64,000 bases of DNA. Origin: Verrucomicrobiota bacterium. Lineage in GTDB: Bacteria; Verrucomicrobiota; Verrucomicrobiia; Limisphaerales; UBA9464. The stretch spans positions 776 through 64,775 of the forward strand of contig VHCG01000016.1 of the NCBI GenBank assembly GCA_016871805.1. Direction: 5' to 3'. The position numbers and the translations under genes are program-made. This document shows positions 1,040 to 63,747 of the stretch, in pieces (within the stretch, counting starts at the first letter, position 1; each line of letters begins with the position of its first letter). The notes below the pieces were generated by a model. That model did not search any database. It saw only the letters and a list, made by a program, of their open reading frames with translations, and was not told the origin of the DNA.

Positions 1040-1346
1040 CGAACAAGCCCTTCCAGAAACCTGCATGGCTAACGAGCTACGCGAAACTGGCTCTCCGGAT
1101 GAACTGGGGCGTCTCGGAAAGCACTCTCGGCGAGAATCGGAATCTGGCGAGCTGCTCCCATCGAACTGGTGGAGCCCTGGACCCGTGGAGCCACAGCTGT
1201 TGGCCGAACTGTTCCGGCCACGGGGACCTCGACCAGAGCGACGACGATGAACCTGCCATCGTTATACAGGCAGCTGCCGAGGGTCGATTTGCGTGCGCCT
1301 TGTAGGGCTTGAGGCGAAGCGGTCGGTTGGTTCACGTTGGGCCTCG

Positions 1347-18204: not shown

Positions 18205-18297
18205 AAGCTCCGGGATGAATTCCGGCCTACCCGCGCCGGGGGACATCCGTCATCCAATTGGCGACCGTCACGCACAACAGCTCGAGGACACGGTGAG

Positions 18298-18331
18298 TTG
18301 AGGACCTGTCGAGCTCGCCAAGGGTCCTCAA
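18298..18331. terminator. hairpin downstream of feoB (possible terminator)
   Basis: TTGAGGACC...GGTCCTCAA 9-bp inverted repeat at the edge of the AT-richer insert. Confidence 0.35.
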
Positions 18332-18441
18332 ATACGGAAGTCGCGCCACGGCAACTGGATGAACTTTCTTAAAAGCGACCATGGCATCAAAGTTGATTGA
18401 TTGGGTACATCTAATTATTAACATAGAGTGGCAATTTCAAG

Positions 18442-25346: not shown

Positions 25347-25462
25347 GGCGCCAGGCCAGAACCCGACGGGCCTCCCATCGAGGTTCGCGAAGGGTTAGTG
25401 CAACGACCCTGGCAAACTTTGCTTTGCCCGGGTCGTCCTGCATTCCCTAGCCTCGCTGGACC

Positions 25463-26431: not shown

Positions 26432-26482
26432 GCCCCGCCCCTTTTTGCGCTGGGGCGTTTCTGACTCTCCAACTCGGCATCG

Positions 26483-36906: not shown

Positions 36907-37488
36907 TTAGCTCTTGTCCCGATAATCTTGAAGATTCGCGAAATCCTCGGCCACCTCTTGGGGAACAAGATGATGGACAGGCAGTCCTCTCCGAACCCGC
37001 CTTCGGATCTCTGATGAAGAAATATCCATAGGCCATCCTTTCAGATGGCGAAGCCTATAAGGCGAGGGAAGGGAAATGGATGGGTGGCCCGGGCGCGGTA
37101 TGACAACAAACTGGACGAGGCACGCGAGAGACTCGGCCTCGCGCCAGCTGGGCAAGTGGGGAACCTGGTCCGATCCAATCAAAAGCAGAAGTTCAGAATC
37201 GGGATATCGTCTCCCGAAGTAACGTATAGTGTCGATCGTGTAGCTGACTCCGCCGCGTACCAACTCGATCGCATCCACCTTGCAACGCATTTGGCCAGCC
37301 AAAGCCAGCCTTAACCACCGAAGCCGCAAGCTCCCATCGGCGGGGCTGCGGTCGGGTTTGAATGGCGACCGGAGGGTCGGAATAAAAATCAACCAATCAA
37401 GCGCCAACTCCTCCAAGGCGGCCTCCGCCACCATCAAGTGACCTCGATGCACAGGATCAAAAGAGCCACCATAGAGGGCTATTCGCAT
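36907..37488 (-). CDS. nadD: nicotinate-nucleotide adenylyltransferase
   Basis: GGSFDPVHRGH, SPFK, SYTIDT, IGSD, ISSSEIR. Confidence 0.95.
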   Translation of the reverse strand: MRIALYGGSFDPVHRGHLMVAEAALEELALDWLIFIPTLRSPFKPDRSPADGSLRLRWLRLALAGQMRCKVDAIELVRGGVSYTIDTIRYFGRRYPDSELLLLIGSDQVPHLPSWREAESLACLVQFVVIPRPGHPSISLPSPYRLRHLKGWPMDISSSEIRRRVRRGLPVHHLVPQEVAEDFANLQDYRDKS

Positions 37489-39452: not shown

Positions 39453-39798
39453 ACTGACATTTCGGTCGGCGCCACAATTGGGGTAGCCAATCCGATGTGA
39501 TCGGTTCAAATCCCTCTACACTCAAATGTTTCGCAAGTCCCGTGGCTTGTCAGTGGACCTAGCGATTCCAATCCCATTCGACTCCGGTCACGGAGAACAT
39601 GAGAACATTTTTTGAAGCTAACCCATCAAATTCCGGTCCCGTCCATCGATCCGTCCCAACCATGGAGGGAACCCCTGGTCGACCTTGTCTCTCATCGCCG
39701 AGAAAATACGTCCATACACTCATTGCAGTCGAAGGAAGCAAGAAACAAACCATCACTAAAACCAATTCCTTAGTCCGTTGAGAACCCCGACCGCCTTG

Positions 39799-41127
39799 TC
39801 ACAGGTGATCGCCCAGATTGCTTGTCGCGATCAGTGCGCCCTGGAATTCCTCACCGAACCGCTGGAGGACTTCGTCCGAATGAAACATCGAGAGATAAAG
39901 CTTCGTACCCATGGGGTTCAGATAGATGCCACCACGAACCAGTTCGAGCATCACTCTTCGCCCCCTCGCCCGATCACTCGCAAGCCAGGTCTGCTGGTCG
40001 AAGACGGGGTGCGACGCAAACGCGACCTGCGCCAACGGTCCAAGGCCCAGCACCTGGCCTTGGGTTTCGGTGGACACGAGAACGGACTCGAGAATCGACC
40101 GAAAACGAGTCCCTGTTTCATGGAGCCGATCGTAGCAACCGGGCTCCGAATAGAGGTCCAACGCCGCCATCGCGGCCGCACATGAGATGGGGTTGCCACC
40201 GGTGGTCGAGGCAGACCACGCATAGTTGGGTCCGGGAAGACGCTGTTCGTTCACCACCTCCATGAGGTCGCTACGCCCTGCATAGGCACCGATCGGAAAC
40301 CCACCCCCAAGAGCCTTTCCAAAGGCGGCAAGGTCCGGTGTCACCCCGAAATACCCCTGGGCACCTGACAGACCGAACCGAAACCCGGTGACCACTTCGT
40401 CAAACACCAACACGATACCCAGGCGTCGGGTCGCCTCTCGGAGTCCCTGGAGGAATCCGGGCAGCGGGGCGAGACACCGGTGGAGCGGCTCGACGATCAC
40501 CGCAGCGAGCTCCTGGCAGTGGGATTCGAGAATCTTCACCGTAGTCGCCAGATCGTTGAAGGGGGCCACCAAAACATCCCGCTCCACCCAACCCGCACCG
40601 GCGCCGCTCGGATCCGACTGCGGCAGGGTGACCGACCGCCCGTTGAGCATGCTGGCGACCCCCACCGGATGCTGGCCGTGGTAGGCGCCCTCAAATTTGA
40701 GGACCTTTGACCGTTGGGTCACAGCCTGGGCGACACGGAGGCACATCAGCGTGGCCTCGGTTCCTGACGCCACGAACCGGACACGCTCCGCGCAGGGAAC
40801 CAAGGACTGAAGCCGCTCCGCCAGTTCGACACCCCGGCGGTTTACACCGGCAAAATTGTAACCATCCGACAACGCACGAATCACCGCTTCACGTATTTTG
40901 GGATGGGCGTGTCCCATCAGAGCCGATCCCCATGCCATGGTCAGATCCCAGTACTCCCGTCCCGACGTATCCCACACCCGTGCCCCTTCTCCACGGGCTA
41001 TGACCGGTGCCAGGCCGGGTGGGAATCCAAACTCGCCGTTCGATCCGTCGGGAAACACAGCCAGAGCACGACGTCCCCAGTCGACGGAACCTCCCGCCTG
41101 CTCCAGCCCTTCAGTAAGTTGGTCCAT
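39799..41127 (-). CDS. class III PLP aminotransferase (glutamate-1-semialdehyde aminomutase-like)
   Basis: SGTEAT, KFEGAYHG, IVEP, FDEVVTGFR, FGKALGGGFPIGA, GNP. Confidence 0.9.
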   Translation of the reverse strand: MDQLTEGLEQAGGSVDWGRRALAVFPDGSNGEFGFPPGLAPVIARGEGARVWDTSGREYWDLTMAWGSALMGHAHPKIREAVIRALSDGYNFAGVNRRGVELAERLQSLVPCAERVRFVASGTEATLMCLRVAQAVTQRSKVLKFEGAYHGQHPVGVASMLNGRSVTLPQSDPSGAGAGWVERDVLVAPFNDLATTVKILESHCQELAAVIVEPLHRCLAPLPGFLQGLREATRRLGIVLVFDEVVTGFRFGLSGAQGYFGVTPDLAAFGKALGGGFPIGAYAGRSDLMEVVNEQRLPGPNYAWSASTTGGNPISCAAAMAALDLYSEPGCYDRLHETGTRFRSILESVLVSTETQGQVLGLGPLAQVAFASHPVFDQQTWLASDRARGRRVMLELVRGGIYLNPMGTKLYLSMFHSDEVLQRFGEEFQGALIATSNLGDHL

Positions 41128-43878: not shown

Positions 43879-45140
43879 CACCGGGCCGAGGTGCCATTCA
43901 CAATGAAATCGAAGAGGTCAAAGTTACGAATATCCGCGCGGGCACGGGCTTCGTAGGCTGGCTTAAGGGGTTCGCTGAGAAACAGAGGAACCATCTCCTC
44001 GTAGCGGCCTCCATGGGACCGCAGCCCTCCTTCGATCGCTTTCAGGTCATGATATTCTGGCGTCCGCCCGAGAACGGAATCTCGCCCGGAACATACCACC
44101 AGGTCCCCCATGCGATCTGCAGGCAGCTCCATCCGTGCAGCTGCAATCAGACGCTCCAGAACCTCGGTCACCCCGGGGAGACTCGAAAGGAAGGAGATCA
44201 CCTCTGCGACGAACGGGACATCTGTGCGCGGCAGATGCACCTGGGCAAACGATCCGAGGGCGCCATGGTGGACCACATAGGGATCGGTGATCGGCAGAAT
44301 GACCCGAAACCCCGTCCCGAATCGTCCAACGAGCTCGCTTTCGAGATACACGACGTTGGGGGACCCGTCCGACCGCTGTTTGGCATTCATGCCGTGATCC
44401 GCCGTGATCCCCACGACCGCACCCATCTCGAGGAGTCGACCCAGGTATCCGTCGATGCCCGCGTAGAAGTCGAGGGCCTCGGGTGCCTCAGGCGCGAACT
44501 TGTGCTGCATGAAGTCCGTGGTGCTCAGGTAGAGGAAATCCGCACGACCCGCCTCCAGCAGCCGGACGCCCGCCCGGAGCACATAGAGCGACGCCTCTCC
44601 CGAATAGATCAGCGGGGTGGGACCCACGAGGGTCTCAACATCGTCGATGCCGTGGGACTCCAACCGTGCCTGGGATGCCTTCTCGGAAGAGAAGGCGATG
44701 CCGGGGTTGCGGGGGCCTACGAGTCCGTGGGCGAAGATGTCGCGCAGCTTTTCCTTGGCCGTGACCACCGCCACCCTCCGACCCGATTGCTGGGCCTTGG
44801 GGAAAAGCGTTTCTGCCCTGAGAAAACGCGAGGAGTTCATCATCACTTCCTGACCTGCGGCCGTGTCGTAGAAGAAGTTGCCTCCTATTCCATGAACCGA
44901 TGGAGGAACCCCGGTGACGATGGAGGAGTTGTTGACGTTGGTGAAGCTGGGCATCGCCCCCCGGGCCATGCCGCGCCATCCCTGAAGGCTGATCCGTTGG
45001 AGATGGGGCATCCGGCCTCGAACCAAGGCCGCATCAAAGTAGTCATCCGCCGATCCATCGAGACAGATTCCCACCACCGGTCGAGCCGGTGGAGAGTACT
45101 GCCGCCCATTCACCGAGAAGGTTGCCGATGTCATGTTCAT
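43878..45140 (-). CDS. phnA: phosphonoacetate hydrolase
   Basis: [62 protein letters not shown]. Confidence 0.9.
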
Positions 45141-45281
45141 CGGGGAGATCCTGTCGTTTCCGTTCTCGGACACCAATCCCCAACTGATCTGGCCGGCGGG
45201 TCTGAGGCGCCTGACTCGAAAGTTTTCGGGGAAAGTTCCCCTTGCCGCACCCTGTTGCGGGCCCTGTCATCCAAGCCCGTC

Positions 45282-45902
45282 ATGAAACGTCTCCAGACCT
45301 GGTTTCCAACACTGCTCTACACGGCCCGTTTGCAAAAAACCGGTGGCACCGCCCTCAACCGTGAGCTCGTGAGGGAATGCCATCAGCTCAGGGACTTCGA
45401 TGACGTCGGCCGCCGTTGGTCCCAGAAGAACTATCCCGGCGGCTACACGAGCTACGGCTCGCTCGACAAACTCCATCGCTTCTCCTCGACCTTCAGCGAT
45501 CTGGAGCGAGGTCTCGATCGCCACGTGCGCTCGTTCGGCCGATCCTTGGACTGGGACCTTGGCGGACGCCGGCTCGTGATGACCGACTGCTGGGTCAACA
45601 TCATGCCATTCCACACCGCGCATAGCCTCCACCTGCATCCGAACTCGGTGGTGAGCGGAACCTACTACGTGTCGACCCCTCGCGGGTGTGCCGGACTGAA
45701 GTTCGAGGATCCCCGGCTCAGTCGCCTCATGGCCGCGCCTCCCCGCAGAGCAGGTGCGCGACCCGCCAACCAACTCTATGTGACCTACCCCGCAAAGGCC
45801 GGTGATCTGATCCTGTTTGAGAGCTGGTTGCGCCACGAGGTTGTGGCGAATCCCATCCGAAGCGAACGCATCAGCATCAGCTTCAACTACGACTGGGCTT
45901 GA
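45282..45902 (+). CDS. TIGR02466-like 2OG-Fe(II) oxygenase
   Basis: YPGGYTSYGSL, WVNIM, HSLHLHPNSVVSGTYYV, FEDPR, FESWLRHEV, RISISFN. Start ATG 45282. Confidence 0.88.
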   Translation: MKRLQTWFPTLLYTARLQKTGGTALNRELVRECHQLRDFDDVGRRWSQKNYPGGYTSYGSLDKLHRFSSTFSDLERGLDRHVRSFGRSLDWDLGGRRLVMTDCWVNIMPFHTAHSLHLHPNSVVSGTYYVSTPRGCAGLKFEDPRLSRLMAAPPRRAGARPANQLYVTYPAKAGDLILFESWLRHEVVANPIRSERISISFNYDWA

Positions 45903-47426: not shown

Positions 47427-48710
47427 GTGGTGTGCCGGGTCTACGATCCACCCAAAACCAAGGCCAAGGTCATGTCAGCTTTCGCATTTGGCTCGTTCAA
47501 AAGAGTCTCATGGATTTGGATCCACATCATGCTCCTCTGGACCCAACTTGAAACGGGGCACTCCAGCGACTGGCCCCAGTTCCTCGGCCCCCAACGAAAC
47601 GGGTCCACCCCGGAACGGATCACGTCGTGGCCCTCCACCGGTCCCAAGCACCTCTGGAAACAACCGATCGGAGCCGGGTTCAGCGGCCCGGTCATCCGAG
47701 GCGAACACGTCCTCACCTTCGATCGCGACGGCGACCAGGAACGGGTCCGGAGCCTGGACCCGGCCACCGGAAATACCCGATGGACCCACCAGGCACCGAC
47801 CGCCTACGTGGACGGGTTTGGATTCGATGACGGCCCTCGGGGGACCCCGGCTACGACGACCAACCGGGTAATCACCTTTGGAGCTCAGGGCCGTCTGACC
47901 TGCCTGGACCTGGCTGACGGGAGGAAGATCTGGGCGATCGAGGCGGGACGCGACTTGGGTGCCGACAAGGGATTCTTCGGACCGGCCTGCTCTCCACTCA
48001 TTGTTGGACAACGCATCTTCATGAACCTGGGCAACCGGAACGGGGGCGGCATCGCCGCCTTCGATCTCACCAGCGGGACGCTGCTGTGGAAGGCAACCGA
48101 TCACGAGGCGGGCTATGCCTCGCCAGTCCCAGGTCCAGGCTCCGGTGACATCAGCTTTTTCACCCGTGAAGGCCTCGTCATCACCCGGATGGACGGCAAG
48201 GTCGGACCCGTCCACCGGTGGCGTTCGCGCCAGCACGCCTCGGTGAACGCCGCAAGCCCCCTTCTCAGTGGCACCGAGATCCTTCTCACGACCAGCTATG
48301 ACACCGGAGCCATTCTGTTGCGTCGAACCGAGGAGAAGATCGAGGTGGTCTGGTCGGGTGACGAGTCCCTCTCGGCACACTACGCCACCCCCGTCCTGAG
48401 CGGTGGGTTCCTGTATGGGTTCCACGGGCGACAGGAGCGAGGTCCGGAGTTCCGGTGTGTCGAATGGGCCACCGGCAAGATGAGGTGGTCGGAAACAGGG
48501 TTGGGAGCCGGCACCGTCCTGCTTGCCGGAACCGATCTGGTGCTTCTGCTGGAATCCGGCGAACTCGTCGTGGCCGCGGCCAGTCCTGATCGGTTCCAGA
48601 TCCGGTCCAGGGTCCAGATTCTAGGCAAGGGAACCCGGGCCCCCTTTGCCCTCGGTGGAGGCCATCTTGTGGCCCGGGATCCTCGAATCCTCGTCTGCCT
48701 CGGAAACTGA
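47427..48710 (+). CDS. PQQ-like beta-propeller repeat protein (BamB-like, PVC-expanded family)
   Basis: DWPQFLGPQRNG, GPRGTP, repeated CLD...G..W, YASP, YATPV. Start probably downstream of 47427. Confidence 0.88.
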   Translation: MVCRVYDPPKTKAKVMSAFAFGSFKRVSWIWIHIMLLWTQLETGHSSDWPQFLGPQRNGSTPERITSWPSTGPKHLWKQPIGAGFSGPVIRGEHVLTFDRDGDQERVRSLDPATGNTRWTHQAPTAYVDGFGFDDGPRGTPATTTNRVITFGAQGRLTCLDLADGRKIWAIEAGRDLGADKGFFGPACSPLIVGQRIFMNLGNRNGGGIAAFDLTSGTLLWKATDHEAGYASPVPGPGSGDISFFTREGLVITRMDGKVGPVHRWRSRQHASVNAASPLLSGTEILLTTSYDTGAILLRRTEEKIEVVWSGDESLSAHYATPVLSGGFLYGFHGRQERGPEFRCVEWATGKMRWSETGLGAGTVLLAGTDLVLLLESGELVVAAASPDRFQIRSRVQILGKGTRAPFALGGGHLVARDPRILVCLGN

Positions 48711-48732
48711 TCGGTCCCAAGTCGCCCTGGGT

Positions 48733-49065
48733 TCAGTCGATACCCAGCAGCTCGACCTCGAAGACAAGCGTGGCATTCGGCGGGATCGCTCCCGGATAGC
48801 CGGAACGTCCATAGGCCAGCTCGGGCGGAATAGTCATCCGCACCTTGTCACCGACCTTCATCGAGGCGACTCCGATGTCCCATCCGGAAATCACCTCCCC
48901 GCGGCCGAGGGTGAAGGAGAAGGGCTCATTGCGGTCGACTGAGCTGTCGAACACGCGCCCATCGGTGAAGCGGCCCGTGTAATGGACGGTCACCCGGTTG
49001 CCCTTCCGGGGCGCAGCTCCGGTGCCGGTGTTCAAGGCCTCAATCTTCAGGTTGTTTTCAGACAT
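48733..49065 (-). CDS. FKBP-type peptidyl-prolyl isomerase
   Basis: VHYTG...[36 protein letters not shown]. Start ATG 49065. Confidence 0.96.
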
Positions 49066-49183
49066 CGACCAAGGTTCCCCGTGACACCCTATCAGGGTCA
49101 ACTCCCGACCCAGTCTCGACCCAGTCGGCGCGACGGTCTTCTTTCGAGTTCCTTCCCTCTCCAGCAGACGCCATCTTCCTTGG

Positions 49184-50215
49184 ATGATCCAGGTCGGCAT
49201 CATAGGCACCGGCTTCATGGCCGCCCAGCACCTCAAGGCCTATCGGCAGGTCCCCGGCGTCCGCATCGCCGCGTTGTGCAACCCTAGCGGACGAAATCTC
49301 GATGGCGACTTCTCCAAGGTCGCTGGAAACGTGGGTGACGCTGATCCTCTCCGGCTCGATATGTCGGAGGTGAAGGCGTTCCGGGATCCTGCGGCCCTGC
49401 TCGCAGACCCGGACATCACACTGGTCGACATCTGCACACCGACGCGGACCCATCTCGACCTGGCCATCGCCGCGCTCGCCGCGGGAAAACACGTGCTGGT
49501 GGAAAAACCGCTCGCCAGAACATACGCCGAGGCATTGCGGATCGCTGAGGTAGCGGAGATCGCCGCCGCGCGCGGCGCGTTCCTGATGCCCGCACTGTGC
49601 ATCCGGTTCTGGCCGGAGTACGTCTGGGTCCGTGAACGGATCCGCAGTCGCGAATACGGCAAGGTCCTCGACGCCCGATTCCGGCGGGTCGCCTCCGCTC
49701 CGGCTTGGGGCCATGCCCATTTCCTCAAGGGAGGAGACTCTGGCGGGGCCCTGCTGGACCTCCACATCCACGACCTCGACTTCATCCAACACTGCTTCGG
49801 AAGGCCCAGCGGACTCGTCGCATCAGGTTATTCGAAGGTGAGCGGAGCCATCGACCATGTGGTGGCTCTGCTCCAGTATTCGAACGGCCCTGTGGTCAGC
49901 GCGGAGGGAAGCTGGGGCATGGCCGAGGGCTTTCCCTTCACCATGGCCTTCACTGTGAACTTCGAGCGGGCGACCGTGGACTTTGATCTCGCACGCAGGG
50001 ATCAACGCCTCCGGGTGAGCCGGGATGGAAAAACGGAAACCGTAACGCTGGACGGGCCCGATGGATATGTCGGGGAGATCCGTCACCTCGTCGAGGCCAT
50101 CCAGTCCGGGCGCCCACCCACCGTGGTCACGCCCCACGACGCCGCGTCGGTCCTTGAGCTCTGCGAGGCGGAGGAACGATCCATCCGCGAGGGCCAGGTT
50201 GTGGGCATCGACTGA
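49184..50215 (+). CDS. Gfo/Idh/MocA family oxidoreductase
   Basis: [38 protein letters not shown]. Confidence 0.93.
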
Positions 50216-50241
50216 CTGCCACACGTAGACTCTCTCCTTTC

Positions 50242-51075
50242 ATGCAATCCACATCCCGATTCACCGGGCTCGTGGAATTCCGCCAGGGATTCCAGAAACG
50301 CACCGGTCTTACCCACATCCTCTTCGACTTCGATGGCACCCTGTCGCTGATCCGCCAGGGCTGGCCTGATATCATGGTTCCGCTCTTCACGGAAATACTC
50401 CCCCCTCTCCCCGACGAAACCGACGAGCAACGCCGTCAGCTGGCGTTCGAGGACATCATGCGACTCAACGGCAAGCAGACCATCTACCAGATGATCCAGC
50501 TCGCCGAACGCGTCCGGGAACGGGGCGGCACGCCCGGTGAGCCCCTCGACTACAAACACGAGTATCTGAGACGCCTCGACGAGCGAATCCGGCACCGGGT
50601 CGAGGGCATACAGGCCGGAACCATTCCGCGTGGCGAGTTCACCGTGTTCGGCACACGCGCGCTGCTCGAGGCCCTGTCCACAAGGGGGCTCAGCCTCTAC
50701 CTGGCCAGCGGAACCGATGAGCAGTTCGTCAAGGCCGAGGCTGAGGCTCTGGGTCTCACACACTACTTCAAGGGCCATATCTATGGAGCCCAGGACGACT
50801 ACAAGAAGTTCAGCAAGAAGATGATCATCGACCGCATTCTTGCCGAGAACCGGATTCCAGGGGATTCCCTGCTGGCCTTCGGAGACGGCTACGTGGAGAT
50901 CGAGAACACCAAGCAGGTTGGAGGCTTCGCCGTCGCAGTCGCCAGCGACGAGGCGAACAACGGTTCCGGCCGCTTTGACCCTTGGAAGCACCAGCGGCTC
51001 ATGGGTGTCGGGGCCGACCTCTGCATACCGGACTACCGCGAACTCGATGCCCTGATGGAGACATTGTTCCCCTGA
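50242..51075 (+). CDS. HAD family hydrolase/phosphatase
   Basis: FDFDGTL, LASGT, K, FGDG.VE motifs I-IV. Confidence 0.92.
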   Translation: MQSTSRFTGLVEFRQGFQKRTGLTHILFDFDGTLSLIRQGWPDIMVPLFTEILPPLPDETDEQRRQLAFEDIMRLNGKQTIYQMIQLAERVRERGGTPGEPLDYKHEYLRRLDERIRHRVEGIQAGTIPRGEFTVFGTRALLEALSTRGLSLYLASGTDEQFVKAEAEALGLTHYFKGHIYGAQDDYKKFSKKMIIDRILAENRIPGDSLLAFGDGYVEIENTKQVGGFAVAVASDEANNGSGRFDPWKHQRLMGVGADLCIPDYRELDALMETLFP

Positions 51076-51100
51076 GGACCAGAAACACCCCAAGACCGCC

Positions 51101-52207
51101 ATGCGTTTCCCGCCTCTCGACCTCACCCGCCTACGAGTCCAACCCCTGGCGGAGCGCAAAAGCCTGTCGACCGTCGACTCGATCCTGGTAGCACCCGACG
51201 CCCCGTTGCGGCCGATCGACCCTGGCCTGAGGCCGGTGGTGGAGGAAGCGGCTGACCGGATCCAGCGCGCGAGAGATCGGGGAGGCTCGGTGATCCTGAT
51301 GTACGGCGCGCATCTCCCTCGAAACGGCGCAACCCCGCTGATCGCGGGACTCATGGAGGATGGGTGGATCACCCATTTGGCCACCAACGGTGCAGGAACC
51401 ATCCACGACTGGGAATTCGCCTGGCTCGGGCGCTCGACCGAGAGCGTGGAGGAAAATGTCGCGACGGGCACTTTCGGATTGTGGGACGAGACGGGCCGAA
51501 ACATTCACCTCGCTCTGCTTGCAGGGGCCCTCGATCGGCTTGGGTACGGCCGGTCGCTCGGACGCTACATCGCCGAGGACGGTTGCGATTTCCCAGCACG
51601 GGAGACCCTGGTCCAGCTGATCCGTGAGTTCCCATCGGATCCTCTCGCCGGTGCCGCGGCCGACCTCCTCTCGGTCCTGGACCGATTCGACATCGCCTCC
51701 GGCCGTCACCCGATCACCCATCCCTGGAAACATGCCAGCATCCTTGCCGAGGCCTGGCGCAGGGGGGTACCCGTCACGGTCCACCCGGGCATCGGCTACG
51801 ATATTATCTCCTGTCATCCCATGTTCCACGGAGCGGCAATCGGACGCGCCGCCGCGGAGGATTTTCGGTCTTTCGCTGGCGCAGTGGAGGGACTCGACGA
51901 CGGTGTCGTGCTGTCGGTCGGCTCCGCCATCATGGCCCCGCAGGTCTTCGAGAAGAGCCTGAGCTGCGTCCACAACCTTCGTTTCCAGGACGGTCGCCGC
52001 GCGGTGTCTGGCCATTCGATCTATGTGGTCGACCTTCAGGACGGTGGCGGCTGGGACTGGACCCAGGGCGAGCCGCCGAAGACCAACCCAGCCTACTACC
52101 TCCGGTTCTGCAAGAGCTTCTCGCGGATGGGTGGAACGATGCGGTATCTGCAGTGCGACAACCTCGCCTTCGTACAGCACCTTCACCGTCGACTCGTGCC
52201 TGCCTGA
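51101..52207 (+). CDS. uncharacterised deoxyhypusine-synthase-like protein
   Basis: MYGAHL, HLATNGA..IHD.E, SILAEAW..GVPVTVHPGIG.D, SVGSA parallel the DHS NAD-binding fold. Confidence 0.7.
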   Translation: MRFPPLDLTRLRVQPLAERKSLSTVDSILVAPDAPLRPIDPGLRPVVEEAADRIQRARDRGGSVILMYGAHLPRNGATPLIAGLMEDGWITHLATNGAGTIHDWEFAWLGRSTESVEENVATGTFGLWDETGRNIHLALLAGALDRLGYGRSLGRYIAEDGCDFPARETLVQLIREFPSDPLAGAAADLLSVLDRFDIASGRHPITHPWKHASILAEAWRRGVPVTVHPGIGYDIISCHPMFHGAAIGRAAAEDFRSFAGAVEGLDDGVVLSVGSAIMAPQVFEKSLSCVHNLRFQDGRRAVSGHSIYVVDLQDGGGWDWTQGEPPKTNPAYYLRFCKSFSRMGGTMRYLQCDNLAFVQHLHRRLVPA

Positions 52208-52219
52208 ACCCCACCACCC

Positions 52220-53233
52220 ATGACACCGGAACGATTCGACGCCATTGCCTCCCGGTATCCCGGACTTCGAATGGCAGTGATCGGGGACTTCTGCCTCGAC
52301 CGCTACTTCGACATCGATCCCGCCCTGCGCGAGGTCTCCATCGAGACCGGTCTTCCGGTCCACAACGTCAACCGGGTCCGCTGCCAGCCCGGAGCCGCCG
52401 GGACAATCCTCAACAACCTCGTTGCGCTCGGCGTCGGGACGCTCTTCCCAGTTGGGTTCTGCGGTGACGACGGGGAGGGATGGTCGCTTCGACACTCCTT
52501 GTCCAGGCTGCCGGGAGTCCGGATCGATGCGTTCGTCACGGCCCCGGACCGGAACACCTTCACCTACAGCAAACCCCTGGTACACCACGCAAACCGGCCG
52601 CCGGAGGAGCTGAGCCGTCTCGACCAGAAGAACTGGACGGCCACCCCACCCTCCCTCGGCCATCAGCTTGCCGATTCCGTGCTGCGGCTCACTGGCGAGG
52701 TCGACGGTTCGATTGTCATGGATCAGGTGGATCTCGAAGGTACGGGCACGGTCACCCGAGAGGTGGTCGGTGCCCTCGCTGAACGGTCGCGTTCGAGTCC
52801 CGATGCCCTGATTCTCGCCGACAGCCGTCGGGGTCTGGGTGGCTGGCCCTCCCTGCTGTTCAAGATGAACGCCGCGGAACTGGCGGCACTGACGGGACGA
52901 TCTGTGGATTCACTGGAGGATATACGGAATGCCTGCATCGCGCTCGCCCGCTCCAGTGGACGATCCGCATTCATCACCCTTTCCGAGCGGGGCATCCTGG
53001 GGGCAACAGCGGCGGGGGAGTCTGCCCACGTCCCGAACCATCCCCTCCGTGGCCCCATCGACATTGTGGGTGCCGGCGATGCCGTGAGTGCCAATCTGAC
53101 CGCAGCCCTCGCGGCCGGAGCCTCATTGGTCGAGGCCATGGAGATTGCCATGGCAGCAGCCCATCTCGTCATCCACCAGCTGGGCACCACGGGAACCGCC
53201 AGCGTCCCGGAGATTCGAAAACTCCTCCTGTGA
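52220..53233 (+). CDS. PfkB carbohydrate kinase, HldE/RfaE domain-I-like
   Basis: VIGDFCLDRY, PGAAG...NNL.ALG, RLD, KMN..E, ITLSERG, DIVGAGD. Confidence 0.9.
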   Translation: MTPERFDAIASRYPGLRMAVIGDFCLDRYFDIDPALREVSIETGLPVHNVNRVRCQPGAAGTILNNLVALGVGTLFPVGFCGDDGEGWSLRHSLSRLPGVRIDAFVTAPDRNTFTYSKPLVHHANRPPEELSRLDQKNWTATPPSLGHQLADSVLRLTGEVDGSIVMDQVDLEGTGTVTREVVGALAERSRSSPDALILADSRRGLGGWPSLLFKMNAAELAALTGRSVDSLEDIRNACIALARSSGRSAFITLSERGILGATAAGESAHVPNHPLRGPIDIVGAGDAVSANLTAALAAGASLVEAMEIAMAAAHLVIHQLGTTGTASVPEIRKLLL

Positions 53234-54291
53234 ATAACGAGACGCGTCCGAAAACCCTTCGGATTCTGTTCCTGTGGGCTGGGCTAGTGTTGGCCGGCTG
53301 CGCCACACCGTCCTCCGCAAAACATGACCGCCTTTTACGGTACGAGTTTGAACGTCCTCAGATGGGACTACCGTTCCGGCTGGTCCTGTATGCCACCAAC
53401 CCAGCCTTGGCAACGAACGCGGCGGAGGCGGCCTGGTCACGGATCGCAGAACTGAACGCGATCCTGAGCGACTATGAGCCGGAATCCGAACTCAGCCGTC
53501 TGTCCCGGACCAGCGGATCAGGAGGGTGGGTTCCACTGGGGCATGACCTCTCTCGTGTTCTGATCGCTGCCAACACATTATCCAGAGACAGCAACGGGGC
53601 CTTCGATGTGACCGTGGGGCCCGAGGTTGCTCTCTGGAAGCGGACACGGCGTCAGCGAGAACTACCCTCAAAGGCCGCGATCGATGAGGCGCGCCGGCTG
53701 AGCGGTTGGACCCTGGTGGAACTCAGGCAACGCGATGGCCGTCACGAGGCCCTGTTGACACGATCCGGCATGCGACTCGATCTCGGCGCCATCGCCAAAG
53801 GCTATGCACTCGACGAAGCAGCACTCGTGCTACGGCAACAGGGAATCCAAAGATTTTTGCTTTCGGGCGGGGGCGACATGGTCATGGGTGATCCTCCACC
53901 CGGACAGATCGGATGGAGGATCGAGGCAGGGGTATTCGACACCCCGGAAGCTCCAAACCGCCGGTTTCTCCATCTCGCCAACACGGCCCTTGCCACGTCG
54001 GGTGACAGTTTCCAGCGCGTGGAGATCGGTGGCATCCGCTACTCCCACATCGTCGACCCCCGGACAGGGATCGGCATGACGGATCACAGCCTGGTCACCG
54101 TGATCAGCCCCTCGGCGATGCTTGCAGATGCCCTGTCGACCGCGGTCAGTGTGCTTGGGCCTACGGAAGGCCCTGACTTTGCAGCACGCCATGGCGCTAA
54201 GGTCTGGATACTCCGCAAACCCGTTTCCACAGTGGAGGAGACCTATTCGGTGGGTTTTCCGCGAGGAGCTTCCCCTGCCCCCTCCCGGTAG
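53230..54291 (+). CDS. apbE: FAD:protein FMN transferase lipoprotein
   Basis: Lipobox LAGC; GAFDVTVGP, LDLGAIAKGYA.D, GGD, LATSGD, HIVDPRTG, ADALSTA. Confidence 0.93.
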   Translation: MNNETRPKTLRILFLWAGLVLAGCATPSSAKHDRLLRYEFERPQMGLPFRLVLYATNPALATNAAEAAWSRIAELNAILSDYEPESELSRLSRTSGSGGWVPLGHDLSRVLIAANTLSRDSNGAFDVTVGPEVALWKRTRRQRELPSKAAIDEARRLSGWTLVELRQRDGRHEALLTRSGMRLDLGAIAKGYALDEAALVLRQQGIQRFLLSGGGDMVMGDPPPGQIGWRIEAGVFDTPEAPNRRFLHLANTALATSGDSFQRVEIGGIRYSHIVDPRTGIGMTDHSLVTVISPSAMLADALSTAVSVLGPTEGPDFAARHGAKVWILRKPVSTVEETYSVGFPRGASPAPSR

Positions 54292-54330
54292 CCTTGGGAC
54301 TCGGCAGGAACTTTCCCAAGATTCGACGGT

Positions 54331-54960
54331 CTATCGGGGTAGTTTTCCGTCCCGGACTAGGTCCACCGCGCGCCAGAGGTACCAGCTGGCCGTAGTTCGG
54401 TATGGACGCCAGCGCTCGCCGAATTCCAACAATTCCCAGCTCCGTGGCATCTCCGGAAGTTCGTGGATGAGCTGGAAGCCATTCCGCACCCCAAAGTCGT
54501 CCGCCGGGAGGACATCGGGGCGGGCCAGTGTGAACATCAGAAACATCTCGACGGTCCAGCGACCCACGCCACGGCACTGGACGAGCCGGTCGATGATGGC
54601 CTCATCGTCAAGGCGGGCGAGGACCCGGCGTTCCGGTACGACTCCCTCCCGGGCCTTGGATGCGATGTCCAGGATCGCACGCACCTTGGACCCCGAGAAG
54701 CCAGCTGAACGGATCCGATCCTCGGCCATCTGTTCCACCTCGGCTGGCGTTGGAAAGCGGCGGCCGGGAAAGAGTTCCAGGAAACGCCGCGTGATGGCGT
54801 CGGCCGCCTTGCCGTTGAGTTGCTGGTGAGCTACAGCACGGACAAGAGCCTCGAACGGAGACCTTCGCTGGGGGCGGATCGTGCAGGGGCCCACCGCACG
54901 GATGATCCGGGCCAGGGTCGGATCCACCACAATGAGGTGTCGGAGGGCTTCTGGAGTCAT
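54331..54960 (-). CDS. alkA: DNA-3-methyladenine glycosylase II (HhH-GPD)
   Basis: PFEALVRAVAHQQL, GVGRWTVEMFL, LPADD.GV, WRPYRT.ASWYLW. Start ATG 54960. Confidence 0.9.
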   Translation of the reverse strand: MTPEALRHLIVVDPTLARIIRAVGPCTIRPQRRSPFEALVRAVAHQQLNGKAADAITRRFLELFPGRRFPTPAEVEQMAEDRIRSAGFSGSKVRAILDIASKAREGVVPERRVLARLDDEAIIDRLVQCRGVGRWTVEMFLMFTLARPDVLPADDFGVRNGFQLIHELPEMPRSWELLEFGERWRPYRTTASWYLWRAVDLVRDGKLPR

Positions 54961-55209
54961 GAGGACCGATCGAAGAGTTCGGGAGACGGCAGGCAGATGC
55001 AATCGGTTCCGGGGACAGATCGGAGCCAGGGTGTTATCAGGGGCTCAGGCTTTTCCAGAAGTCCAATCCCACCCAGGCCCAAGCGCCACGACGGGACGAG
55101 CCTCCGGGGCGAGCCTCCAGTTTCCAATTCGAGGACGGTGTGCTTTCCTCCCGAGTCCGGATCCATTGGAAACGACCTGATTGTTACAGATCCTCCCCAA
55201 TCGCGACGA

Positions 55210-56826
55210 ATGCCGCTGAACCATGAGCTGTTCGACTTGGTGATTGTGGGCTCCGCCTTCGGCGGCTCCCTGCTGGCTTCGATCGCTCGCCAGCTTGGAC
55301 GGAGCGTGGTGCTGATAGAACGAGGCTGTCATCCGCGCTTTGCGATCGGGGAGTCGTCAACGCCGCTGACCAATCTATTTCTCGAACAGCTTGCCGATCG
55401 GTACAATCTGCCCCGCATCCGTGCGTTCTCAAAGTGGGGCACGTGGCAGAAAAATCATCCGAGGGTCGCGGCCGGTCTCAAGCGGGGATTCAGCTTCTAC
55501 CACCACGAGTTTTACAAGCCGTGGTGCCCGCAAGAGGACCGCAGCAACGAACTCCTGGTCGCAGCGAGTCCAAACGACGACGTTGCCGACACCCACTGGT
55601 ATCGCCCTGATTTCGATGCGTTTTTTGTCGAGGAAGCGGTCTCACACGGAGCGGTCTACATTGACCAGACGAAACTGACTTCGTTTTCAGAACGACCCGA
55701 TGAGGTTTACCTGCAGGGTGTCCGTCAGGGTGATCCAGTGGAGTTTAGAGGTCGCTTTCTCGTGGATGCCAGTGGGGCACGAGGATTCCTCTGGAAACAA
55801 CTCAACCTCGGCGAGGAGCCTCTTGTGGCCTTCCCCGATCGAGAGGCTCTCTTCACTCACTTCTCCGGAGTCGGGCGCTGGGAATCCTGTATCGGCCCGA
55901 CCGCCTCAGCGTCGGGAAATCTGCCTCAAACAGATCCGACGGCCAAATCAGTGCCTCCTTTCCCTCCTGATGACGCCGCGCTGCATCATGTGTTTCCGGG
56001 AGGATGGATGTGGCTGCTCCGCTTCAACAATGGGATCACCAGCGCTGGCGTCTCGATCGATCCGAAGATTGCGAGGGATCTTCATCTGGAGGCAGGAGCA
56101 GCCGGTTGGCGCCGGATGTTGGAACGGCTGCCGTCAGTCGCCGTCCAATTTGCCGAAGCCCACGCCGTCCACCCCTTCGTCCACCTGCCCTCGGTGGCCT
56201 TCTGCTGCACGCAATCTGTTGGCCGCCGGTGGGCATTGCTGCCCTCGGCCATGGGGTTCCTCGATCCGTTGCTGTCGACGGGTTTTCCGCTGACCCTGCT
56301 GGGGATTCGTCATCTGGCCGAACTGCTGGGGCAAGGCACGGTTCCAAGTCAAAAGGCACTGGTAACCTACGCATCCGAGAACCGCGCCAATCTCGAGGTC
56401 GCCGCGGAGTTAGTCGGCACTCTGCACCACAATCTCGGGCGGCCTGCCATCTTCCAAGCCCTGTCCATGTTGTACTTCGCAGCCGCCTCTTTTTCCGAGA
56501 CGGCGCTTCGCCTGGGAAAGGCGGATCTTGCCCCGGGATTCCTTCTGCGTGGCCGGAATGGCTTTCGCGAAAGCCTGCGCACTCTGTGCCTCAGAGCCCG
56601 AGCGGATTCGTTGTCATCAACAGATTTCGTTTCCGCCATGACAGAGGCCATCGGTCCCATCAACGTGGCGGGACTAAACGATTCCTCGAGGCGGAACTGG
56701 TATCCGGTCGATTTGACCGATCTTCAAAACAGCCGCGGAAAACTAACCGCCTCAGGGCCCGACATCGATGCGATGCTGCATCGATGCGGGATGGCAATGC
56801 CCGTTTCGATTTCAGGAGTTGGGTGA
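55210..56826 (+). CDS. flavin-dependent halogenase (PrnC-like)
   Basis: VIVGSAFGGS, HPRFAIGES, GLKRGF (catalytic Lys position), GWMWLL, GFLDPLLSTG. Start ATG 55210. Confidence 0.8.
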   Translation: MPLNHELFDLVIVGSAFGGSLLASIARQLGRSVVLIERGCHPRFAIGESSTPLTNLFLEQLADRYNLPRIRAFSKWGTWQKNHPRVAAGLKRGFSFYHHEFYKPWCPQEDRSNELLVAASPNDDVADTHWYRPDFDAFFVEEAVSHGAVYIDQTKLTSFSERPDEVYLQGVRQGDPVEFRGRFLVDASGARGFLWKQLNLGEEPLVAFPDREALFTHFSGVGRWESCIGPTASASGNLPQTDPTAKSVPPFPPDDAALHHVFPGGWMWLLRFNNGITSAGVSIDPKIARDLHLEAGAAGWRRMLERLPSVAVQFAEAHAVHPFVHLPSVAFCCTQSVGRRWALLPSAMGFLDPLLSTGFPLTLLGIRHLAELLGQGTVPSQKALVTYASENRANLEVAAELVGTLHHNLGRPAIFQALSMLYFAAASFSETALRLGKADLAPGFLLRGRNGFRESLRTLCLRARADSLSSTDFVSAMTEAIGPINVAGLNDSSRRNWYPVDLTDLQNSRGKLTASGPDIDAMLHRCGMAMPVSISGVG

Positions 56827-63126: not shown

Positions 63127-63747
63127 ATGAGCCTCGTACTGACCCAGCAGGTCCTCGTCCTAAACCGTCTCTGGCAGGCGGTGAACATCTGCTCGGTGCG
63201 ACGTGCCCTATCGCTCCTGTTCGAAGGCCATGCCCAGGTCGTGCAGGACAACCTGCAGGGTGATTTCAAGACCTACACGTTCGATCAGTGGCGGGATCTG
63301 TCACGGCTGGGTCCTGATGGGGAATCCCTCGGTACCGTCTCCTTCCGGATGCGCATCCCGCGGGTGATCCTTCTCCAAGTGTTCGACAGGCTCCCAAAAA
63401 AGGAGGTCAAGTTCACCCGTCACAACATCTTCGAACGGGATGGCAACACCTGCCAGTACTGCGGTCGAATCTTCGACCGGAGGGATCTCAACCTCGACCA
63501 CGTGGTACCCCGGGACCGCGGTGGACCGACGCAGTGGGACAACATCGTCTGCTCCTGCATCCCCTGTAACACAAGGAAGGCGAACCGGACGCCGGCCGAG
63601 GCAGGCATGCGCCTGATCCGCAAACCCAAGCGACCCAAGTGGCGGCCATTTGTGCAGGTGAACTTTGGCGCACCGATCCACGAGTCATGGCGCCACTTCC
63701 TCGATCTTGCGTATTGGAACGTCGAGCTCGGGCAGGAGATGAATTGA
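63127..63747 (+). CDS. HNH endonuclease (McrA/COG1403-like)
   Basis: VLVLNR.WQ..RRAL.LL, P.VILL, NIFERD..TCQYCG, LDHVVPR.RGG...W.N.V..C..CN.RK.NRTP.EAGM. Confidence 0.92.
   Translation: MSLVLTQQVLVLNRLWQAVNICSVRRALSLLFEGHAQVVQDNLQGDFKTYTFDQWRDLSRLGPDGESLGTVSFRMRIPRVILLQVFDRLPKKEVKFTRHNIFERDGNTCQYCGRIFDRRDLNLDHVVPRDRGGPTQWDNIVCSCIPCNTRKANRTPAEAGMRLIRKPKRPKWRPFVQVNFGAPIHESWRHFLDLAYWNVELGQEMN

Follow-up and report, generated by a model that had tools for sequence, protein, structure and literature searches.

A GSU2086-family protein in a conserved gene module with a HAD phosphatase and an HldE-type kinase

We analyzed a 64,000-nt stretch of a Verrucomicrobiota genome (contig VHCG01000016.1; hereafter the window) and found in it a conserved unit of three genes, encoding a HAD phosphatase, a GSU2086-family protein, and an HldE-type PfkB kinase. 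The middle gene encodes a member of a widespread bacterial family that is already named in NCBIfam, without an assigned function, and our literature search found no paper on the function of this family. The family probably performs an undescribed step in sugar metabolism. Our preferred reading, which we hold tentatively, is that the module corresponds to the middle of a nucleotide-heptose pathway and that the GSU2086-family protein is a homodimeric enzyme with a bound dinucleotide cofactor, catalyzing a redox-neutral step on a heptose-type sugar phosphate.

The gene run and its conserved core

The five forward-strand ORFs of the run (Table 1) have exactly the coordinates given in a preliminary description of this DNA, and they confirm its intergenic gaps of 26, 25, and 12 nt followed by a 4-nt overlap between the PfkB and ApbE genes. 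The overlap reads GTGA, with the ApbE ORF starting at GTG and its second codon beginning with A. At the left boundary, the FKBP ORF as called overlaps the start of the Gfo gene, and its true start is therefore probably further in.

Table 1. Genes of the run and its left boundary, in window positions
Feature	Position	Strand	Details
FKBP-type prolyl isomerase	48733..49236	-	PF00254 E 7e-38; left boundary of unit
Gfo/Idh/MocA NAD(P) oxidoreductase	49184..50215	+	343 aa; PF01408 E 8.6e-23, also PF22725; first gene of run
HAD-superfamily phosphatase, C1 cap	50242..51075	+	277 aa; PF00702 E 1.7e-11; core gene 1
GSU2086-family protein (P0001)	51101..52207	+	368 aa; NF052581 ("GSU2086 family") 330.9 bits, cutoff 250; core gene 2
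PfkB-family kinase, HldE/HldA (heptose-7-phosphate kinase) type	52220..53233	+	337 aa; TIGR02198 E 1.1e-35; core gene 3
ApbE flavin transferase	53230..54291	+	353 aa; PF02424 E 1.3e-68

Neighborhoods were counted in 80 loci, those of the 80 best among at least 580 confirmed matches. These 80 share 61 to 75% identity with the query and belong for the most part to Verrucomicrobiota, Planctomycetota, and Acidobacteriota; every locus count below refers to these best 80 and describes this one clade only. The gene immediately upstream of the central gene encodes the HAD in 45 of 69 loci, and the one immediately downstream encodes PfkB in 54 of 73. Of the 65 loci with room on both sides, 41 have the two flanking genes in this same order. 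Every other real neighbor family is limited to at most 8 of the 80, and genes for polyamine, eIF5A/EF-P, or arginine functions were not recurrent near the central gene in these loci.

The linkage extends to fusions. In 10 of 17 representatives chosen as long or odd, the domain is joined to a PfkB, HAD, SIS, or cytidylyltransferase-like domain, and the 31 long homologues include 16 of the form PfkB+HAD+GSU2086 (about 1,020 aa) and five of the form HAD+GSU2086. Since the HAD-central-PfkB order both recurs across related loci and exists as single proteins, the run is not a chance arrangement, and the conserved linkage with kinase and phosphatase that had been proposed is borne out. The best matches of the fusion partners are rfaE_dom_I, rfaE_dom_II, and gmhA. 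All partner enzymes, including the kinase of the window, score below the NCBIfam equivalog cutoffs (kinase 123 to 158 against 345, SIS 74 to 118 against 209, adenylyltransferase 93 to 169 against 181.5), so the substrate may not be heptose.

The two outer genes do not share this conservation. Gfo/Idh/MocA is a lineage-local accessory: only 3 of 64 loci among the best 80 have it in the 1.5 kb upstream. The NCBIfam model that it matches best is inositol 2-dehydrogenase, with 113 bits where the cutoff is 355. An ApbE gene lies in the 2 kb downstream for 7 of 64 of these loci. ApbE is probably co-transcribed with the run but functionally separate; it carries an N-terminal lipoprotein signal (LAGC) and is a predicted periplasmic lipoprotein. 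Of the five-gene unit first described, only the HAD-GSU2086-PfkB core therefore stands.

The kinase has TIGR02198 (rfaE_dom_I) as its best full-length match, covering model positions 7 to 312 of 315 but scoring 123 bits where the cutoff is 345, and its best PDB match is heptose 7-phosphate kinase 4e84 (E 2.3e-12). It carries a GAGD motif and consists of the kinase domain only, with no adenylyltransferase domain in Pfam and NCBIfam scans, as the preliminary description had read it. The HAD phosphatase has DFDGT as motif I (D29, D31). Its AF2 model (pLDDT 90.2) is nearest to AlnB, phosphoglycolate-phosphatase-like proteins, beta-phosphoglucomutase, and CbbY, a C1-cap sugar-phosphatase type, and it had no match to GmhB models in the NCBIfam scan, in agreement with the view that it is not GmhB-like. 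The reported absence of gmhA from the window also held: tblastn (E ≤ 1e-3) found no homologues of GmhA-like SIS, RfaE-domain-II, or ROK proteins there, and Pfam scans of the window gave no SIS match.

Other lineages supply such partners. Two published sources (PMC5585712; PMC3495685) describe Geobacter sulfurreducens GSU2084-GSU2087 as heptose-1,7-bisphosphate phosphatase (GmhB role), hldE, GSU2086, and gmhA, and give electrode transposon fitness values of -3.1 for hldE, -3.2 for GSU2086, and -3.7 for gmhA; this phenotype could be polar on neighboring genes. On a Solidesulfovibrio plasmid the gene order is HldE-like, GSU2086-type, SIS. A true HldD (TIGR02197, 368 bits against a cutoff of 274.6) is the convergent neighbor in an acidobacterial locus (L079), an SDR with the same Pfam profile occupies that position in L067, and in L043 a GT9 heptosyltransferase is encoded about 5 kb from the gene. 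Because the family is found beside or fused to GmhA-like, RfaE-domain-II-like, GmhB, and HldD genes, we regard the pathway as a variant of heptose-type metabolism and not as the orphan it had been called.

Further contexts, in Chloroflexota and in Chthoniobacter and Opitutales, look like uptake or salvage. A Chloroflexota plasmid carries, on one strand with tiny gaps, genes for a TIM-barrel isomerase, Gfo, DeoC, and an RbsB-like binding protein with an ABC transporter, and the operon continues with Gfo, HAD, GSU2086-type, PfkB, and SIS. Its HAD is 49% identical to that of the window, while the Gfo preceding it is only 25% identical to the window Gfo. A ROK kinase precedes the module in Chthoniobacter and Opitutales and is upstream in 5 of 60 loci among the best 80; in Chthoniobacter flavus, a divergent AraC/PAS regulator adjoins ROK-SIS-HAD-GSU2086-PfkB. 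In one of the long homologues (P0132), the domain is fused to a sugar-binding/AraC regulator.

Fold and predicted dimer of the central protein

The central ORF had no match to the Pfam DS model (PF01916) in the Pfam scan and no full sequence match to LOR/SDH ornithine cyclodeaminase or deoxyhypusine synthase (DHS). Its AF2 model (pLDDT 95.8, pTM 0.93) gave 73 Foldseek matches in the PDB at E ≤ 0.001. The top ones are LOR/SDH proteins (ArgZ/AgrE, 3c2q; E 7e-8 to 8e-7), DHS structures rank slightly behind (E 1e-6 to 4e-4), and TM-scores against solved structures are modest (0.35 to 0.45). A DHS-like dinucleotide-binding fold, as proposed in the preliminary description, is thus upheld, with LOR/SDH the slightly better match. 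At the sequence level, the family profile matched ArgZ/AgrE (E 6e-7) and 3c2q (E 4.9e-5) over the first beta-alpha-beta unit, and an 'HD-x-E' motif common to these proteins corresponds to H102, D103, and E105. TIGR00300 matched at 21.8 bits against a cutoff of 410.8, over residues 46 to 112 only, and an archaeal DHS matched the family profile at E 0.29.

Across 35 diverse family members, H71, E105, E114, D234, and D254 are present in all, H102, D103, E130, and R335 are kept in 34, and K285, N292, D311, and R19 in 33, an enzyme-like pattern. No equivalent of the DHS catalytic lysine was established in the central protein.

Two copies modeled together with NAD, itself unscored, are predicted to form a homodimer. 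The score was 0.96 against 0.00 for the best control, past a mark that, in calibration, 20 of 30 one-chain pairs and 1 of 23 single chains among solved proteins had attained, although this pass may reflect likeness to solved DHS and LOR/SDH oligomers. Contact agreement between runs was at least 94%, with a partner pLDDT of at least 94, and the predicted interface includes the conserved H228-D234, D254, and E284-N292. The family also contains natural tandem double-domain proteins (P0122, P0273, P0160).

Proposed role and alternatives

In our preferred reading, the kinase would add a phosphate to the anomeric position of a GmhA-type sugar phosphate, and the HAD phosphatase would next take off the distal phosphate. 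The GSU2086-family protein would act on one of these intermediates in an additional step, as a homodimer with a DHS/LOR-SDH-type dinucleotide pocket in which the bound cofactor is most likely NAD(P)+. Its reaction is most likely redox-neutral, proceeding by oxidation, rearrangement, and reduction, and would amount to an epimerization or isomerization of a heptose-type phosphate or its ADP derivative. Our analysis shows the fold, the family membership, the gene linkage, and the fusions, and it predicts the dimer; the cofactor, the substrate class, and the reaction type we infer. The epimerase, lyase, or aminating chemistry named in the preliminary description may apply, as candidates only. Overall, the fold, context, and linkage of that earlier interpretation stand, while its five-gene unit and orphan status do not.

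An alternative that we consider unlikely, though worth weighing, is a role of the module in salvaging or catabolizing an imported sugar and not in envelope heptose biosynthesis. A free sugar would be imported, phosphorylated, and isomerized, and the GSU2086-type enzyme, kinase, and HAD phosphatase would direct it to central metabolism or re-activation. The Chloroflexota operon keeps this role under consideration because it pairs an RbsB-like ABC sugar importer with the module, in a phylum generally without LPS; the Chthoniobacter regulator, the upstream ROK genes, the P0132 fusion, and the Gfo/Idh/MocA gene heading the window run point the same way. However, the kinase is nearest to anomeric heptose-7-phosphate kinases and not to catabolic PfkB kinases, sugar activation is what the adenylyltransferase fusions indicate, the gene neighborhoods in Geobacter and Solidesulfovibrio are biosynthetic, and transporters and regulators are not recurrent neighbors among the best 80. 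It is quite improbable that the GSU2086 protein is a non-orthologous replacement of HldD, that is, an ADP-D-glycero-D-manno-heptose 6-epimerase on a DHS fold. Among the fusion partners and neighbors, four of the five canonical ADP-L,D-heptose functions are represented, which leaves the epimerase over; HldD chemistry is a transient NAD(P)-dependent oxidation, which fits a DHS-like fold, and adenylyltransferase fusions would put one domain's product beside the next enzyme. Yet the bona fide HldD immediately beside the gene in L079 means that the 6-epimerase vacancy is already filled in that acidobacterial locus, which argues against a simple replacement. A similar SDR occupies the same place in L067, the module also occurs in the Chloroflexota operon, and its most constant neighbor is the kinase, not the adenylyltransferase.

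Regulatory domains are often fused to varied enzymes of a pathway, and the GSU2086 domain is fused to every different pathway enzyme in one lineage or another. Together with the ability of the DHS-like pocket to bind an ADP-containing ligand, established for the fold, this would fit a non-enzymatic nucleotide-sugar- or dinucleotide-binding subunit, regulatory or scaffolding, such as an ADP-heptose sensor on pathway enzymes. We assign little probability to such a subunit, as certain His, Asp, Glu, Lys, and Arg residues vary little or not at all even in members only 34 to 43% identical to P0001, the conserved domain has the large size of some 300 residues or more, and the protein is a separate gene in most loci of the best 80. 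The enzyme might instead use a nickel-pincer dinucleotide (NPAD) in place of NAD, as LOR/SDH-type ornithine cyclodeaminases do. Its nearest relatives in sequence and fold are ArgZ/AgrE/3c2q and TIGR00300, the latter named 'ornithine cyclodeaminase, nickel-pincer nucleotide-dependent' in NCBIfam, and PMC13524815 cites Desguin 2025 for an NPAD-dependent ornithine cyclodeaminase. This is very unlikely given the short, low-scoring TIGR00300 match, the absence of LarB, LarC, and LarE from the window scans, and the lack of any recurrent family besides PfkB and HAD above the 8-of-80 level in the best 80. Finally, it seems extremely unlikely that the protein truly works on polyamines or amino acids, as a deoxyhypusine synthase, homospermidine synthase, or ornithine cyclodeaminase, and lies among sugar genes by chance. 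The fold is similar to DHS and ornithine cyclodeaminase, clusters in the ESM Atlas carry the automatic name 'Deoxyhypusine synthase family protein', and one homologue (L082) weakly matches a homospermidine biosynthesis model (27.8 bits against a cutoff of 450). Against this, PF01916 does not match, the archaeal DHS match to the family profile has an E of only 0.29, identity to DHS structures is 10 to 16%, polyamine, eIF5A/EF-P, and arginine neighbors do not recur in the best 80, and both linkage and fusion are with sugar-phosphate enzymes. The preliminary description had set a non-DHS fold, a plain homospermidine synthase, or missing kinase and HAD linkage against its own interpretation, and we found none of these.

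Comparison with known systems

The best fold match to the GSU2086 protein is the LOR/SDH ornithine cyclodeaminase domain (the C-terminal part of ArgZ/AgrE, TIGR00300; 6juy, 6lrf/6lrg/6lrh, 3c2q), which also gives the only significant sequence-profile matches to the family among solved structures; the two have the first Rossmann unit and the 'HD-x-E' motif in common, and 6lrg holds NAD+ according to its entry title. However, the homologous stretch spans only about 70 to 80 residues, the GSU2086 protein has no N-terminal LOR/SDH or arginine dihydrolase domain, and its genes lie among those for sugar-phosphate enzymes, not arginine or ornithine genes. With DHS and homospermidine synthase (PF01916) it has the overall NAD-binding fold in common. 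DHS active sites lie at subunit interfaces, and the predicted GSU2086 oligomer likewise has conserved residues there. It differs from DHS in the family model, in its low identity, and in its lack of a polyamine or eIF5A context.

On the pathway side, the closest system is ADP-L-glycero-beta-D-manno-heptose synthesis (GmhA, HldE or HldA+HldC, GmhB, HldD). The window kinase is nearest to HldE domain I or HldA, the kinase-plus-phosphatase logic is common to both, and in other lineages the family is fused or adjacent to genes of this pathway. To our knowledge, the canonical version neither contains nor needs a GSU2086-type protein; in the window, the phosphatase is a C1-cap HAD and not GmhB, the kinase falls below the equivalog cutoff, and an isomerase and an adenylyltransferase are missing. 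HldD, the ADP-glyceromanno-heptose 6-epimerase, has an unrelated SDR fold and co-occurs beside a GSU2086-type gene in L079. It nevertheless provides the model for the chemistry that we propose, as its tightly bound nicotinamide cofactor transiently oxidizes a heptose hydroxyl.

Organization of the gene run

The run comprises five plus-strand ORFs encoding a Gfo/Idh/MocA oxidoreductase, a HAD hydrolase, a GSU2086-family protein (the central protein), a PfkB kinase, and ApbE. The ORF listing agreed exactly with the coordinates claimed in the preliminary description; the spacers of 26, 25, and 12 nt were likewise as claimed, and the last two ORFs share 4 nt, GTGA. The final ORF has a GTG start, from which the overlap is read with its second codon. 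The left edge of the run is an FKBP gene on the opposite strand. As called, this ORF overlaps the start of the oxidoreductase gene by 53 nt; with an alternative ATG near 49173 (minus strand), ~10 nt would separate these divergent genes, placing their promoters inside each other's coding regions. A scan of 48500-55000 was uninformative: it found 0 promoter-like sites, and its two terminator-like sites, each on the minus strand, are below the number that shuffles give. On the other side of the run, a 528-nt gap separates ApbE from a flavoprotein. Coordinates of all features are collected in the table.

Features of the window discussed in the text
Feature	Position	Strand	Length (aa)	Basis or match
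HNH endonuclease-domain ORF	1293-2324			
AT3+SGNH acyltransferase	18442-20493			
Multidomain protein	20898-25346		1,482	GDSL lipase, DUF7133, HEAT, F5/8 type C, plastocyanin-like domains
Longest ORF of its region	25289-27448	-	719	No Pfam match
SDR epimerase/dehydratase	25463-26431	+		
LPG_synthase_TM protein	26483-27478	+		
NadD	36907-37488	-		TIGR00482, 160.9 bits (cutoff 112.45)
ORF in low-GC patch	37848-39509		553	No Pfam match
2OG-Fe(II) oxygenase-domain protein	44013-45902		629	TIGR02466, C-terminal, 223 bits (cutoff 62.5)
FKBP	48733-49236	-		
Gfo/Idh/MocA oxidoreductase	49184-50215	+		Pfam + NCBIfam
HAD hydrolase	50242-51075	+		Pfam + NCBIfam
GSU2086-family protein	51101-52207	+	368	NCBIfam NF052581
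Antisense ORF	51131-52663	-	510	No Pfam match
PfkB kinase	52220-53233	+		Pfam + NCBIfam
ApbE	53230-54291	+		Pfam + NCBIfam
Flavoprotein	54820-56826		668	Weak matches to QhpG/LodB-type flavin-dependent maturases and tryptophan-halogenase-like domains
HNH endonuclease-domain ORF	63127-63747			

Several other features of the window are recorded here. The GC fraction falls to 0.534 at 18001-20000, a patch containing the acyltransferase, and to 0.479 at 38001-40000, which contains the 553-aa ORF, against ~0.62 elsewhere; both patches may be acquired DNA. The SDR and LPG_synthase_TM ORFs lie opposite the 719-aa ORF, and these plus-strand ORFs are probably the real genes at that site; the SDR shares only 30% identity with a true HldD. 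The oxygenase-domain protein has a long N-terminal part that matches no family; its gene is followed directly by glgA and a BamB/PQQ-like beta-propeller gene. HNH endonuclease-domain ORFs lie near both window ends.

Two ORFs were considered and rejected. The only cytidylyltransferase-like ORF in the window, a candidate for the missing adenylyltransferase, is NadD. The antisense ORF over the central gene was rejected as a true gene; ORFs resembling it accompany the central gene in 71 of 80 related loci, and we take it to be a shadow ORF of the sort that GC-rich coding sequence typically gives.

A conserved trio and its fusions

Related loci were collected with a 12-sequence alignment as the query; at least 580 matches in species-representative genomes were confirmed, of which we used the best 80. 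They have 61-75% identity and come mostly from Verrucomicrobiota, Planctomycetota, and Acidobacteriota, so that the counts describe one clade. Among these best 80 loci, searched with the window's own proteins, 45 of the 69 with room had the HAD gene immediately upstream of the central gene, 54 of 73 had the PfkB gene immediately downstream, and 41 of 65 had the two together. The linkage of the HAD, PfkB, and DHS-like genes is conserved, on both flanks and additionally through fusions. The five genes as a single conserved pathway were rejected: 3 of 64 loci have a Gfo/Idh/MocA gene nearby, and 7 of 64 have ApbE. ApbE carries an N-terminal lipoprotein signal (LAGC), by which it should work outside the cytoplasm, and we treat it as a passenger for this reason.

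All-against-all clustering of the ORFs found no other genuine neighbor family in more than 8 of the 80 loci, the remaining large clusters being antisense shadow ORFs. By a small HMM of our own, 8 of 64 loci have a GmhA-like SIS gene upstream of the HAD gene, and 5 of 60 have a ROK kinase gene upstream of SIS. Where the trio is broken, the homologue of the central gene lies mostly among unrelated genes. DUF1501 genes (a cluster of 8 loci) occur near the module in L043, L048, and L066, and PSCyt/PSD1 (DUF1549/DUF1553) genes in L043 and L051, with both kinds seen only in L043; such neighbors are probably just common in Verrucomicrobiota and Planctomycetota.

Fusions connect the same activities within single chains. 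A Pfam scan of 17 hand-picked long or odd representatives found a pathway-type partner fused to the GSU2086 domain in 10: PfkB+HAD (P0128), PfkB (P0242), HAD (P0180, P0197), a cytidylyltransferase-like domain (P0150, P0162, P0200), the same domain with an ARMT1-type phosphatase (P0152), and SIS (P0201, P0225). The best NCBIfam models of these partners were rfaE_dom_I, rfaE_dom_II, and gmhA, always under the equivalog cutoffs. A search for long proteins found 31, of which 16 were PfkB+HAD+GSU2086 proteins of ~1,020 aa (Terracidiphilus gabretensis is the named source of one) and 5 were HAD+GSU2086. These results establish the C1-cap HAD phosphatase, the GSU2086-family protein, and the HldE-type kinase as a conserved functional unit, and they establish its tie to GmhA-like isomerases and RfaE-type adenylyltransferases. 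The unit works like a nucleotide-heptose pathway, yet its individual enzymes do not classify as members of that pathway's families.

Family, fold, and context of the central protein

The central protein matched NF052581 at 330.9 bits (cutoff 250; E 8.3e-99), residues 5-363 aligning to model positions 1-300 of 301, and is a member of this family, which is already named in NCBIfam without a function. Its closest homologues among the matches listed are from Verrucomicrobiota metagenome-assembled genomes. The family is large: matches number at least 7,944 among clusters at 90% identity and at least 1,910 (E<=0.001) among cluster representatives at 50% identity. The only other sequence signals in Pfam and NCBIfam were weak and confined to residues 46-112, where they correspond to the Rossmann part of ArgZ-like proteins and TIGR00300. 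The sequence is contained in the ESM Atlas, where automatic cluster naming yields labels such as "Deoxyhypusine synthase family protein."

From an alignment of 35 diverse members, AlphaFold2 produced a confident model, with a pLDDT of 95.8 and a pTM of 0.93. Foldseek against the PDB returned 73 matches at E<=0.001, with TM-scores of 0.35-0.45 and identities of 10-16%. They are led by the LOR/SDH-type cyclodeaminase domains of ArgZ and AgrE and the archaeal 3c2q (E 7e-8 to 8e-7), with many deoxyhypusine synthases (DHSs) second (E 1e-6 to 4e-4). The DHS matches bear out the preliminary description, and "DHS-like" is right as regards the fold; the protein itself is a member of neither the DHS nor the cyclodeaminase family. 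In the alignment of 35 sequences, H71, E105, E114, D234, and D254 are conserved in all, H102, D103, E130, and R335 in 34, and R19, K285, N292, and D311 in 33. H102, D103, and E105 form an "HD-x-E" motif in common with ArgZ/AgrE. An insertion of ~40 residues (roughly 165-207) is missing from the shorter, Geobacter-type members.

Two copies of the central protein predicted with NAD (itself unscored) scored 0.96 in each of three runs, against 0.00 for the best control, with contact agreement of at least 94% and partner pLDDT of at least 94. This passes our mark for a dimer, which in calibration was reached by 20 of 30 solved same-chain pairs and 1 of 23 solved single chains; the pass may partly mirror fold likeness, since DHS and LOR/SDH oligomers are solved. 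The predicted interface takes in the conserved stretches 228-235, 242-257, and 284-293. Natural tandem duplications of the GSU2086 domain (P0122, P0273, and P0160; 679-731 aa) agree with a dimer.

Contexts of more distant members were drawn from two plasmid records and two paper tables. According to a table in PMC5585712, hldE (GSU2085), GSU2086, and gmhA (GSU2087) are consecutive in Geobacter sulfurreducens, and their transposon fitness values on electrodes are -3.1, -3.2, and -3.7, respectively. GSU2084 is annotated as a heptose-1,7-bisphosphate phosphatase and GSU2088 as a glycosyltransferase in a table of PMC3495685. The transposon phenotype of GSU2086 may be a polar effect. On plasmid pDCAR1 of Solidesulfovibrio carbinolicus (L081, 7453-15058), genes follow one another for an HldE-like protein (domains reversed: adenylyltransferase, then kinase), a GSU2086-type protein, SIS, and three radical-SAM enzymes, including two B12-binding ones. 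Together with surrounding nonulosonic-acid-type (NeuB/PseF-like), split transketolase, and methyltransferase genes, this cluster seems to encode a pathway for an elaborate, modified sugar.

At the acidobacterial locus L079, the convergent neighbor is a true HldD (TIGR02197, 368 bits; cutoff 274.6), and in the corresponding position L067 has an SDR whose Pfam profile is the same. L043 (Opitutales) has a GT9 heptosyltransferase gene and an MsbA-like gene ~5 kb away. A Chloroflexota plasmid (L082, 1-13231) carries a twelve-gene same-strand array with tiny gaps, in the order TIM-barrel isomerase, Gfo, DeoC, RbsB-like binding protein and its sugar ABC importer, Gfo, HAD, GSU2086-type, PfkB, and SIS, after which comes a 508-aa protein without a family match. 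Its HAD shares 49% identity with that of the window, and its Gfo only 25% with the window's Gfo. This array speaks against a purely envelope role. In Chthoniobacter flavus, an AraC/PAS regulator is divergent from ROK-SIS-HAD-GSU2086-PfkB.

The Gram-negative envelope uses heptose phosphates and ADP-heptose as building blocks; animal innate immunity senses both, and the heptose pathway is regarded as complete with four or five enzymes. We tentatively propose that the central protein is an enzyme, that it works as a dimer with a dinucleotide cofactor bound, and that it would convert the sugar phosphate of the kinase in a redox-neutral step; cofactor, substrate, and reaction are inferences. The step would most likely be an epimerization or isomerization of the sugar phosphate. 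By extension, and with the same reserve, the GSU2086 family could be the first carbohydrate-active enzyme of the DHS/LOR-SDH fold, a homodimer with a bound dinucleotide cofactor performing an unrecognized step on a heptose-type sugar phosphate.

The Chloroflexota and Chthoniobacter contexts favor a salvage or catabolic purpose of the module and keep it a serious rival. A simple replacement of HldD by the central protein is disfavored, since a true HldD adjoins a GSU2086-type gene at L079. Genuine polyamine chemistry, in keeping with the DHS-like fold, is less likely; no polyamine or eIF5A genes lie near the central gene in the window, and none recur in the 80 loci. A nickel-pincer dinucleotide (NPAD), as in the NPAD-dependent cyclodeaminase reported by Desguin 2025 (as cited in PMC13524815), is also a less likely cofactor; lar genes, which supply it, were found neither in the 64-kb window nor recurrently near the 80 loci. 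A regulatory role is less likely as well; judged from the alignment, the pattern of conserved polar residues looks like an active site.

In the library searched, no paper joined heptose, or hldE/gmhA, with deoxyhypusine synthase, and the name GSU2086 was met in one paper, as a table row (PMC5585712). This large family, locked by gene order and fusion to the kinase of the pathway, has no assigned function. If the central protein is an enzyme, a textbook pathway would gain a step or a new heptose variant, and a fold known only for amine chemistry would extend to sugars. If our reading is true, an extra stage of heptose metabolism would be widespread, reaching at least the Verrucomicrobiota, Planctomycetota, Acidobacteriota, and Chloroflexota, together with deltaproteobacterial sulfate and metal reducers. 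The reading can be tested directly in Geobacter sulfurreducens, an organism amenable to genetics for which a mutant phenotype of GSU2086 has been published.

Comparison with known enzymes

With DHS (PF01916), the central protein has the fold in common: 8put, 7cmc, 6dft, and 1dhs are matched by Foldseek at E 1.3e-6 to 4.3e-5, with probability 1.00 and TM-scores of 0.38-0.44 by query. It differs in having no PF01916 match at E<=0.001. The catalytic lysine of human DHS is Lys329; judged by conservation in the alignment, K285 (33 of 35 sequences) is alone among the lysines of the central protein in reaching 90%, and K338 is conserved in 28 of 35. The likeness to LOR/SDH ornithine cyclodeaminases takes in the fold and the cofactor-binding first Rossmann unit. 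The 35-member profile matched ArgZ/AgrE in the PDB at E 6e-7 over ~70-80 residues and 3c2q at 4.9e-5, whereas an archaeal DHS reached only 0.29. Against TIGR00300 itself, the central protein scored 21.8 bits, far from the cutoff of 410.8, over residues 46-112 only.

The comparison with ADP-heptose synthesis concerns the partners. TIGR02198 (HldE kinase) is still the best model for the window kinase, aligned over positions 7-312 of 315, but its 123.3 bits fall under the equivalog cutoff of 345. The kinase retains the GAGD motif, is closest among solved structures to heptose 7-phosphate kinase 4e84, and, as first described, has no adenylyltransferase domain in Pfam or NCBIfam. The HAD was also rightly called not GmhB-like: it matches no GmhB model in NCBIfam at E<=0.001, and a sequence search against the PDB found no relative at E<=0.01. 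It has the nucleophile motif DFDGT, and its model (pLDDT 90.2) is nearest in fold to C1-cap HAD phosphatases of the sugar-phosphate type, resembling AlnB, phosphoglycolate-phosphatase-like proteins, beta-phosphoglucomutase, and the bisphosphate phosphatase CbbY. GmhA and the adenylyltransferase are both missing from the 64-kb window, where the search found no GmhA-like SIS gene, in line with the earlier claim, and no RfaE-domain-II or ROK gene. Elsewhere, GmhA-like and adenylyltransferase partners adjoin the GSU2086 family or are fused to it.
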